Shown: positions 42,304-42,382 of the stretch, piece after piece
How positions within the stretch are numbered: the first letter of the stretch is position 1
Layout of the letters: the number at the start of each line of letters is the position of its first letter
Virus record (IMG/VR): IMGVR_UViG_2585427708_000005
Origin: a virus
Lineage: Duplodnaviria; Heunggongvirae; Uroviricota; Caudoviricetes
Strand: one strand, 5' to 3'
Length of the DNA: 64,000 bases
Notes under the pieces: model-generated
The model's input: the letters and a program-made list of their open reading frames with translations, nothing else
Database searches by the model: none
Told to the model about the DNA's origin: nothing
Program-made: the position numbers and the translations under genes

Positions 42304-42373
42304 CTTGGATGTTACCTTCCTCCCCTCCTCCCGCAAAAAATAAAAAAATTGCTTGTCACGAGAAAGTCAACAA

Positions 42374-42382
42374 GTGACTTTC
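42374..42382 (+). promoter_or_regulatory. Candidate late-promoter box GTGACTTTC, with inverted partial copy GAAAGTCAA at 42362..42370
   Basis: Same 9-mer as upstream of pacA; about 60 nt upstream of the head-gene start. Confidence 0.35.

Follow-up and report, generated by a model that had tools for sequence, protein, structure and literature searches.

Does a nine-base sequence shared by the upstream regions of a DNA-packaging gene and a putative head gene belong to the control system of a phage, and where would such an element begin and end? The question was raised by the preliminary description of a 64,000-nt window (the whole stretch of DNA analysed), which placed the 9-mer GTGACTTTC upstream of pacA and of the putative head gene, where it is indeed present (3107-3115, minus strand, and 42374-42382, plus strand). 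Judged by its sequence, the window is a P1-like phage-plasmid, with 93-99% identity to phage P1 (AF234172 / NC_005856) over most of its length, in reverse orientation, and 99% identity to P1 and to many P1-like phage-plasmids in the surroundings of the 9-mer. Whole-window comparison found co-linearity of window 388-6717 with P1 93204-86875 and of window 39903-64000 with P1 61312-36904, and two replaced blocks that are not co-linear with P1 (6717-14294 and 37650-39902; Table 1); because the first of these substitutes for a large part of the pmgT-to-hot region of P1, both LPhot and hot are missing from the window.

Counting the literal 9-mer provides a weak starting point. Three exact copies were identified in the window, the third of which (39429-39437, plus strand) had been overlooked when two were found by eye, against 0.49 expected; because at least three copies occurred in 5 of 100 dinucleotide shuffles, the bare count is of no more than marginal significance. 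Tolerating one mismatch gave 22 copies in the window versus 13.5 expected, and literal counting was set aside as being, alone, too weak to serve as evidence. The complete P1 genome holds two exact copies, at the late promoters LP23 and LPpac only. The spacing previously put at about 50 to 60 nt upstream of both genes is roughly right, the start of the 9-mer lying 52 nt from the pacA GTG (3063) and, for gene 23, 68 nt from the TTG annotated as the start in P1 (42442) or 47 nt from the TTG of the longest ORF (42421). The third copy was rejected as a promoter, being internal to an ORF, with no AA in front, no -10 hexamer behind and a score below 9 bits with the late-promoter matrix described below; it is a chance occurrence. 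Such a copy, devoid of promoter features, together with a total of only three copies that 5 of 100 shuffles also reach, is what favours reading the shared 9-mer as a chance repeat without function.

The two upstream copies coincide with late promoters annotated in AF234172, and the 11 late promoters annotated in that record (LPmat, LPpro, LPlyz, LPdar, LPs, LPsit, LP23, LP26, LPpmgL, LPhot and LPpac) were all aligned. P1 late promoters consist of AC, a 9-bp palindrome AAGTNACTT centred near -22, four unconstrained bases and a sigma-70 -10 hexamer TAnnnT, with no -35 hexamer. Knowledge of the box and of its activator Lpa goes back to the early 1990s, and the description of the family is reportedly due to Lehnherr et al. 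in 1991-92 and Lobocka et al. in 2004; the element and Lpa are thus already known, and the element is annotated base for base in the P1 reference genome. Because the aligned promoters read (A/G)AC AAGTNACTT N4 TAnnnT, the 9-mer corresponds to box positions 3-9 followed by the first two spacer bases, a register 2 nt away from the conserved boxes AAGTGACTT (LP23) and ATGTGACTT (LPpac), with each of which the respective copy (42374-42382 against 42372..42380 at LP23; 3107-3115 at LPpac) shares seven bases. Its final TC is free spacer carrying 0.1-0.3 bits of information and varies between relatives (TTTC, TTAC, TTGC), and LP23 and LPpac merely happen to have TC at the first two spacer positions. 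We assign a probability of about 0.93 to the reading in which the 9-mer comprises the last seven positions of the -22 box and a further two bases of spacer, in two Lpa-dependent late promoters, LPpac and LP23.

Table 1. Coordinates of the late-promoter elements, genes and replaced segments discussed in the text
Feature	Position in window	Strand	Remarks
pacA, packaging (terminase) subunit	1870..3063	-	Transcribed from LPpac
-10 hexamer of LPpac, TACCCT	3099..3104	-	Annotated in AF234172
-22 box of LPpac, ATGTGACTT	3109..3117	-	'-22 region of LPpac' in AF234172; 8/9 to the palindrome type
lpa, late promoter activator	3149..3601	-	Pfam PF25716 BPP1_LPA, E = 3e-57, 193 bits; PHROG 1704 (Lpa-like transcriptional activator)
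Accessory block, lambdoid-like ea/DUF genes	6717-14294		Replaces much of the P1 pmgT-to-hot region
LPpmgL	20324-20345	-	Shares the LP26 box
LP26, AAC AAATGACTA GCGG TAGAAT	20331..20352	+	Upstream of gene 26
ppfA ('possible periplasmic function')	36519-36941	+	Rz-like spanin PHROG
mlp ('membrane lipoprotein precursor')	36775-37107	+	Overlaps ppfA; Rz-like spanin PHROG
RepFIB-type replicon	37650-39902		Replaces P1 repA/oriR/incA; as in SJ46, phi456, JL22
Third exact GTGACTTTC	39429-39437	+	Within ORF 39024-39833, in the non-P1 RepFIB-type replicon segment
Left arm GAAAGTCA of extended palindrome	42362..42369	+	
Whole LP23, AAC AAGTGACTT TCAA TAAAAT	42369..42390	+	24.2 bits; matrix built without LP23 and LPpac
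-22 box of LP23, AAGTGACTT	42372..42380	+	'-22 region of LP23' in AF234172; perfect 9-bp palindrome
-10 hexamer of LP23, TAAAAT	42385..42390	+	Annotated in AF234172; 4 nt past the box
Gene 23, major head protein	42442..44148	+	99.5% identity to P1 gp23
LPsit, CAC AAATGACTA CTCG TAGAAT	54365..54386	+	Upstream of pmgC, tub, sit
LPs (classical Ps promoter), GAC AAGTTACTT CTCT TACAAT	62565..62586	+	Upstream of tail-fibre genes R, S

LP23 (labelled 'predicted late promoter LP23' in AF234172) and LPpac show all the defining features of the P1 late promoters that could be tested. Over their 22 nt both are identical in the window and in P1; the LP23 box agrees with the type AAGTNACTT at 9/9 positions and the LPpac box at 8/9, and the -10 hexamer lies exactly 4 nt past the box in both and in nine of the ten other annotated P1 promoters, LPhot being the exception. 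The predicted transcription start would fall about 7 nt after the -10 hexamer; since this places it near 42397 for LP23, the centre of the LP23 box is at about -21/-22, and at both sites the box centre is 21-22 nt before the predicted start. Each promoter faces its gene on the coding strand, with 51 nt between the -10 hexamer of LP23 and the gene 23 start and 35 nt between that of LPpac and the pacA start; the corresponding distance is 29-31 nt at LP26 (gene 26), LPsit (pmgC) and LPs (R).

A weight matrix built from seven other P1 late promoters, with LP23 and LPpac excluded, gave scores of 24.2 bits for LP23 and 20.4 bits for LPpac, compared with a maximum score that averaged 13.4 +/- 1.9 bits over 200 first-order Markov random windows and reached a top value of 19.2 bits. 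Seven window sites scored at least 15 bits versus 0.23 expected. The matrix picked out LPs, LP23, LP26, LPsit and LPpac in the window, together with an extra site within gene 7; in the complete P1 genome, nine annotated late promoters and that same gene 7 site exceeded 20 bits. Pooling 17 sites located the information (1.2-2 bits) at AC and box positions 1-8, with high values also at box position 9 and at the first T of the -10 hexamer, 2 bits for the A and the closing T of that hexamer, and 0.1-0.45 bits across the spacer. The divergent LP26 (plus strand) and LPpmgL (minus strand) have a single palindromic -22 box in common (20334-20342). LPpmgL fits the consensus poorly, scoring 10.6 bits, or -11 bits when left out of the matrix.

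Some matches lack the complete layout. Bare AAGTNACTT boxes at 46717, 50473 and 59484 are without a properly spaced -10 hexamer and were discarded as promoters by the matrix. The second of these, a perfect AAGTGACTT box (50473-50481, plus strand), lies at the kilA/repL junction, antisense to kilA, with TACAAT 10 nt downstream in a long spacing like that of LPhot; it is conserved in P1 (50726-50747, minus strand) and is probably there by chance. A 15.9-bit match in the non-P1 accessory block (10775-10796, minus strand) was likewise dismissed, having a -10 hexamer without the final T and overlapping an ORF start, and about 0.2 such matches are expected per random window.

Conservation was assessed in diverged relatives. 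The whole 93.8-kb genome of Cronobacter phage JK004, with 65-85% protein identity to P1, was scanned with the P1 matrix; all nine matches of at least 10 bits are intergenic and on the coding strand, and eight lie 12-139 nt upstream of orthologues of 23, R, mat, 26, pacA, prt, lyz and pmgC, genes that head the late operons of P1; the remaining match lies upstream of the ppfA orthologue. Enrichment upstream of late genes, on which the preliminary description had staked its proposal, is thus seen in JK004 with the corrected motif; of the motif search that it had suggested upstream of all late genes, the outcome was positive for AC-AAGTNACTT-N4-TAnnnT and negative for the literal 9-mer. An alignment of the region upstream of gene 23 from six genomes (the window, E. 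coli 673R5, an E. albertii plasmid, JK004 and two Salmonella plasmids) revealed GTCAACAAGTGACTT-N-CAATAA(A/T)AT to be invariant in 6/6, with sequence drift on both sides. The LP23 -22 box is invariant in all six of these P1-like genomes and the -10 hexamer is TAAAAT or TAATAT, and position 8 of the 9-mer is T, A or G in the same alignment. The -10 hexamer of LPpac is also kept in JK004, as AACGTGTGACTTGCGTTACCCT. For phage D6, with 44% identity in gp23, the gene 23 upstream region could not be aligned and no P1-type box was seen there, which makes D6 uninformative. In PLSDB, about 960 P1-like plasmids carry gp23.

The chance reading of the 9-mer, which would be exceedingly improbable for the element as a whole, is refuted for the copies at 3107 and 42374, both of which extend to a 22-nt architecture shared with seven annotated promoters, score 20-24 bits, higher than every random window, recur in diverged phages and carry an annotation in P1; it holds for the copy at 39429 only.

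Alternatively, the element might belong to a standard sigma-70 promoter serving gene 23, as AF234172 carries two predicted sigma-70 promoters that overlap the region, P1 23 (-35 TTGTCA, with a -10 overlapping the box) and P2 23, and auxiliary sigma-70 promoters have been described at several late operons (PMC8201110). Against this, a consensus scan of 42150-42500 found no sigma-70-type promoter, with -35 and -10 hexamers 16-18 nt apart, the GAAAGT that stands 17 nt before TAAAAT agrees with TTGACA at 1/6 positions, and relatives keep the box and TAAAAT, not TTGTCA, which makes this explanation very unlikely. At LPpac, TTGACA is present, yet just 12 nt from the -10 hexamer.

A further feature of the gene 23 site is the inverted partial copy of the 9-mer that had been noted there and that exists as described, the minus strand of 42362-42370 reading TTGACTTTC, an 8/9 match. 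Together with the 9-mer it forms a palindrome (42362-42382) with 8-bp arms GAAAGTCA / TGACTTTC and a 5-nt loop, and the functional unit at gene 23 could be taken to be this larger structure, GAAAGTCA-N5-TGACTTTC, acting as a hairpin or terminator of the par operon or as a site for some dimeric regulator distinct from Lpa. The arms are perfect, by our own estimate the naive probability of meeting an 8/9 inverted copy within 20 nt is about 0.5%, and the predicted RNA hairpin, with only three G-C pairs in its stem, reaches -9.1 kcal/mol (z = -2.5), a stability matched by 7 of 200 shuffles. The same region contains no T-run after the hairpin, however, no terminator was predicted on either strand, and the left arm differs between relatives, being GTTTGTCA in JK004 and GCTTGTCA in the Salmonella plasmid p21-SA00706 (GAAA changed to GTTT or GCTT); in a second Salmonella plasmid, pCFSAN058588, the right arm is mutated to TTGC, with no compensating change in the left. 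No such arm was found at any other late promoter in the P1 alignment, LPpac included. With no T-run, a weak stem and unconserved arms, 42362-42382 was rejected as a terminator or hairpin, and a role for the larger palindrome as the functional unit is highly improbable; the inverted partial copy is, on comparative sequence grounds, probably incidental apart from a conserved GTCA(AC) flank, and no part of the conserved element. A separate small palindrome, CACACAAG-TGC-CTTGTGT (42410-42427, plus strand), is located in the gene 23 leader directly ahead of the Shine-Dalgarno sequence; shuffles fold equally well (z = -0.1), and by eye no obvious counterpart was found in JK004-like sequences.

With the -22 box of LP23 and LPpac as the preferred identity of the element, its role can be drawn from studies of P1. 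The 11 P1 late promoters share a conserved 9-bp inverted repeat identified as the Lpa-binding site (PMC10695390), and Lpa binds DNA in a sequence-specific manner and acts with SspA (PMC1891329), although one paper terms it an RNA-polymerase-binding factor (PMC8198154). P1 late genes require both Lpa and the host protein SspA (PMC8198154, PMC8201110). SspA touches RNA polymerase and not P1 promoter DNA (PMC1891329), bridging sigma-70 region 4 and the beta-prime zinc-binding domain with no DNA contact (PMC7515715). Direct recognition of the box by Lpa is accepted here from the literature, and Lpa binding and SspA dependence at LP23 and LPpac themselves are inferred from the same sources. The proposal that the shared element is the Lpa recognition site is supported in that its copies coincide with the AF234172 late promoters and the inverted repeat is named in the literature as the site bound by Lpa. 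The window encodes lpa itself 30 nt upstream of LPpac; a PDB search with Lpa yielded no relative and no solved Lpa structure in the PDB copy used.

The mechanism proposed for the window follows the same lines. Host sigma-70 RNA polymerase alone would not use the late promoters; the early protein Lpa would recognise the -22 box and work together with the host polymerase-associated SspA. Because Lpa and SspA would jointly recruit polymerase, the genes for head, tail, lysis and packaging would come on after the early phase, with the predicted LP23 driving the head and sheath genes 23 and 22 and LPpac driving pacA-pacB.

Among known systems, the LPpac and LP23 promoters of P1 have the same 22-nt sequence, box, spacing, -10 hexamer, downstream genes and activator gene as those of the window, and no substantive difference separates them; the window differs in being a P1-like plasmid with a RepFIB-type replicon and another accessory block, and in the absence of LPhot and hot. 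T4 middle promoters resemble P1 late promoters in keeping a -10 hexamer, in replacing the -35 hexamer by a phage-specific box with a phage activator and in retaining the host sigma-70; the T4 MotA box, however, is non-palindromic and lies at -30, whereas the P1 box lies in the spacer at -22, and T4 itself encodes the co-factor AsiA, which remodels sigma region 4, whereas P1 uses host SspA. T4 late promoters (gp55/gp33/gp45) also lack a -35 hexamer, but there sigma is replaced and only TATAAATA is needed, with no upstream box, whereas P1 late promoters stay sigma-70 dependent. A DNA-bound activator likewise works through an SspA-family protein on sigma-70 RNA polymerase at the PRE promoters of Francisella, where PigR acts with MglA-SspA, and for which P1 Lpa/SspA has been cited as precedent (PMC1891329). 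PigR is an unrelated activator with another DNA element and position, serving a cellular virulence regulon as opposed to phage late genes.

The corrected motif may also reveal late promoters absent from the P1 reference annotation, a suggestion that is tentative and for which the best candidate is a weak one, upstream of ppfA/mlp. This site (36478-36499, plus strand), AAC AAAGGACTT CATT GATAAT, scores 11-13 bits, ends 19 nt before the ppfA ATG (36519) and carries no late-promoter annotation in AF234172. In JK004 and in two Salmonella P1-like plasmids the same place reads ACA(A/T)A(T/G)GAC(C/T)T-N4-GA(A/T)AAT, with variation in spacer and leader, and four diverged lineages retain the layout of box, 4-nt spacer and GAnAAT. 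From their matches to Rz-like spanin PHROGs (E = 1e-25 for ppfA and 2e-77 for mlp), the two genes look like an overlapped spanin pair of the Rz/Rz1 type, vaguely named in the P1 record. A second site, AACAAGTGACTGGTGATAACCT (22036-22057, plus strand), lies inside gene 7, 46 nt past the gene start, and scores 20.6-20.8 bits, more than any of the random windows yielded; P1 has the identical sequence (76780-76801, minus strand), unannotated, and the JK004 counterpart of the site falls below 10 bits in a comparison confounded by coding constraint. This internal site may be a second late-promoter candidate, high in score and unconserved.

The discovery value of the shared element is small, the late-promoter box and Lpa being already in the reference annotation. 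The additions made here are likewise small, and consist of comparative support for LP23, which is 'predicted' in the record, and of the true boundaries of the motif, AC-AAGTNACTT-N4-TAnnnT. Should the candidate upstream of ppfA be genuine, the final step of lysis would be timed by a weak late promoter whose -10 hexamer opens with G. The motif holds in diverged P1-like phage-plasmids as well, and so offers a means of annotating late operons in the many P1-like plasmids that are being found in Enterobacteriaceae.
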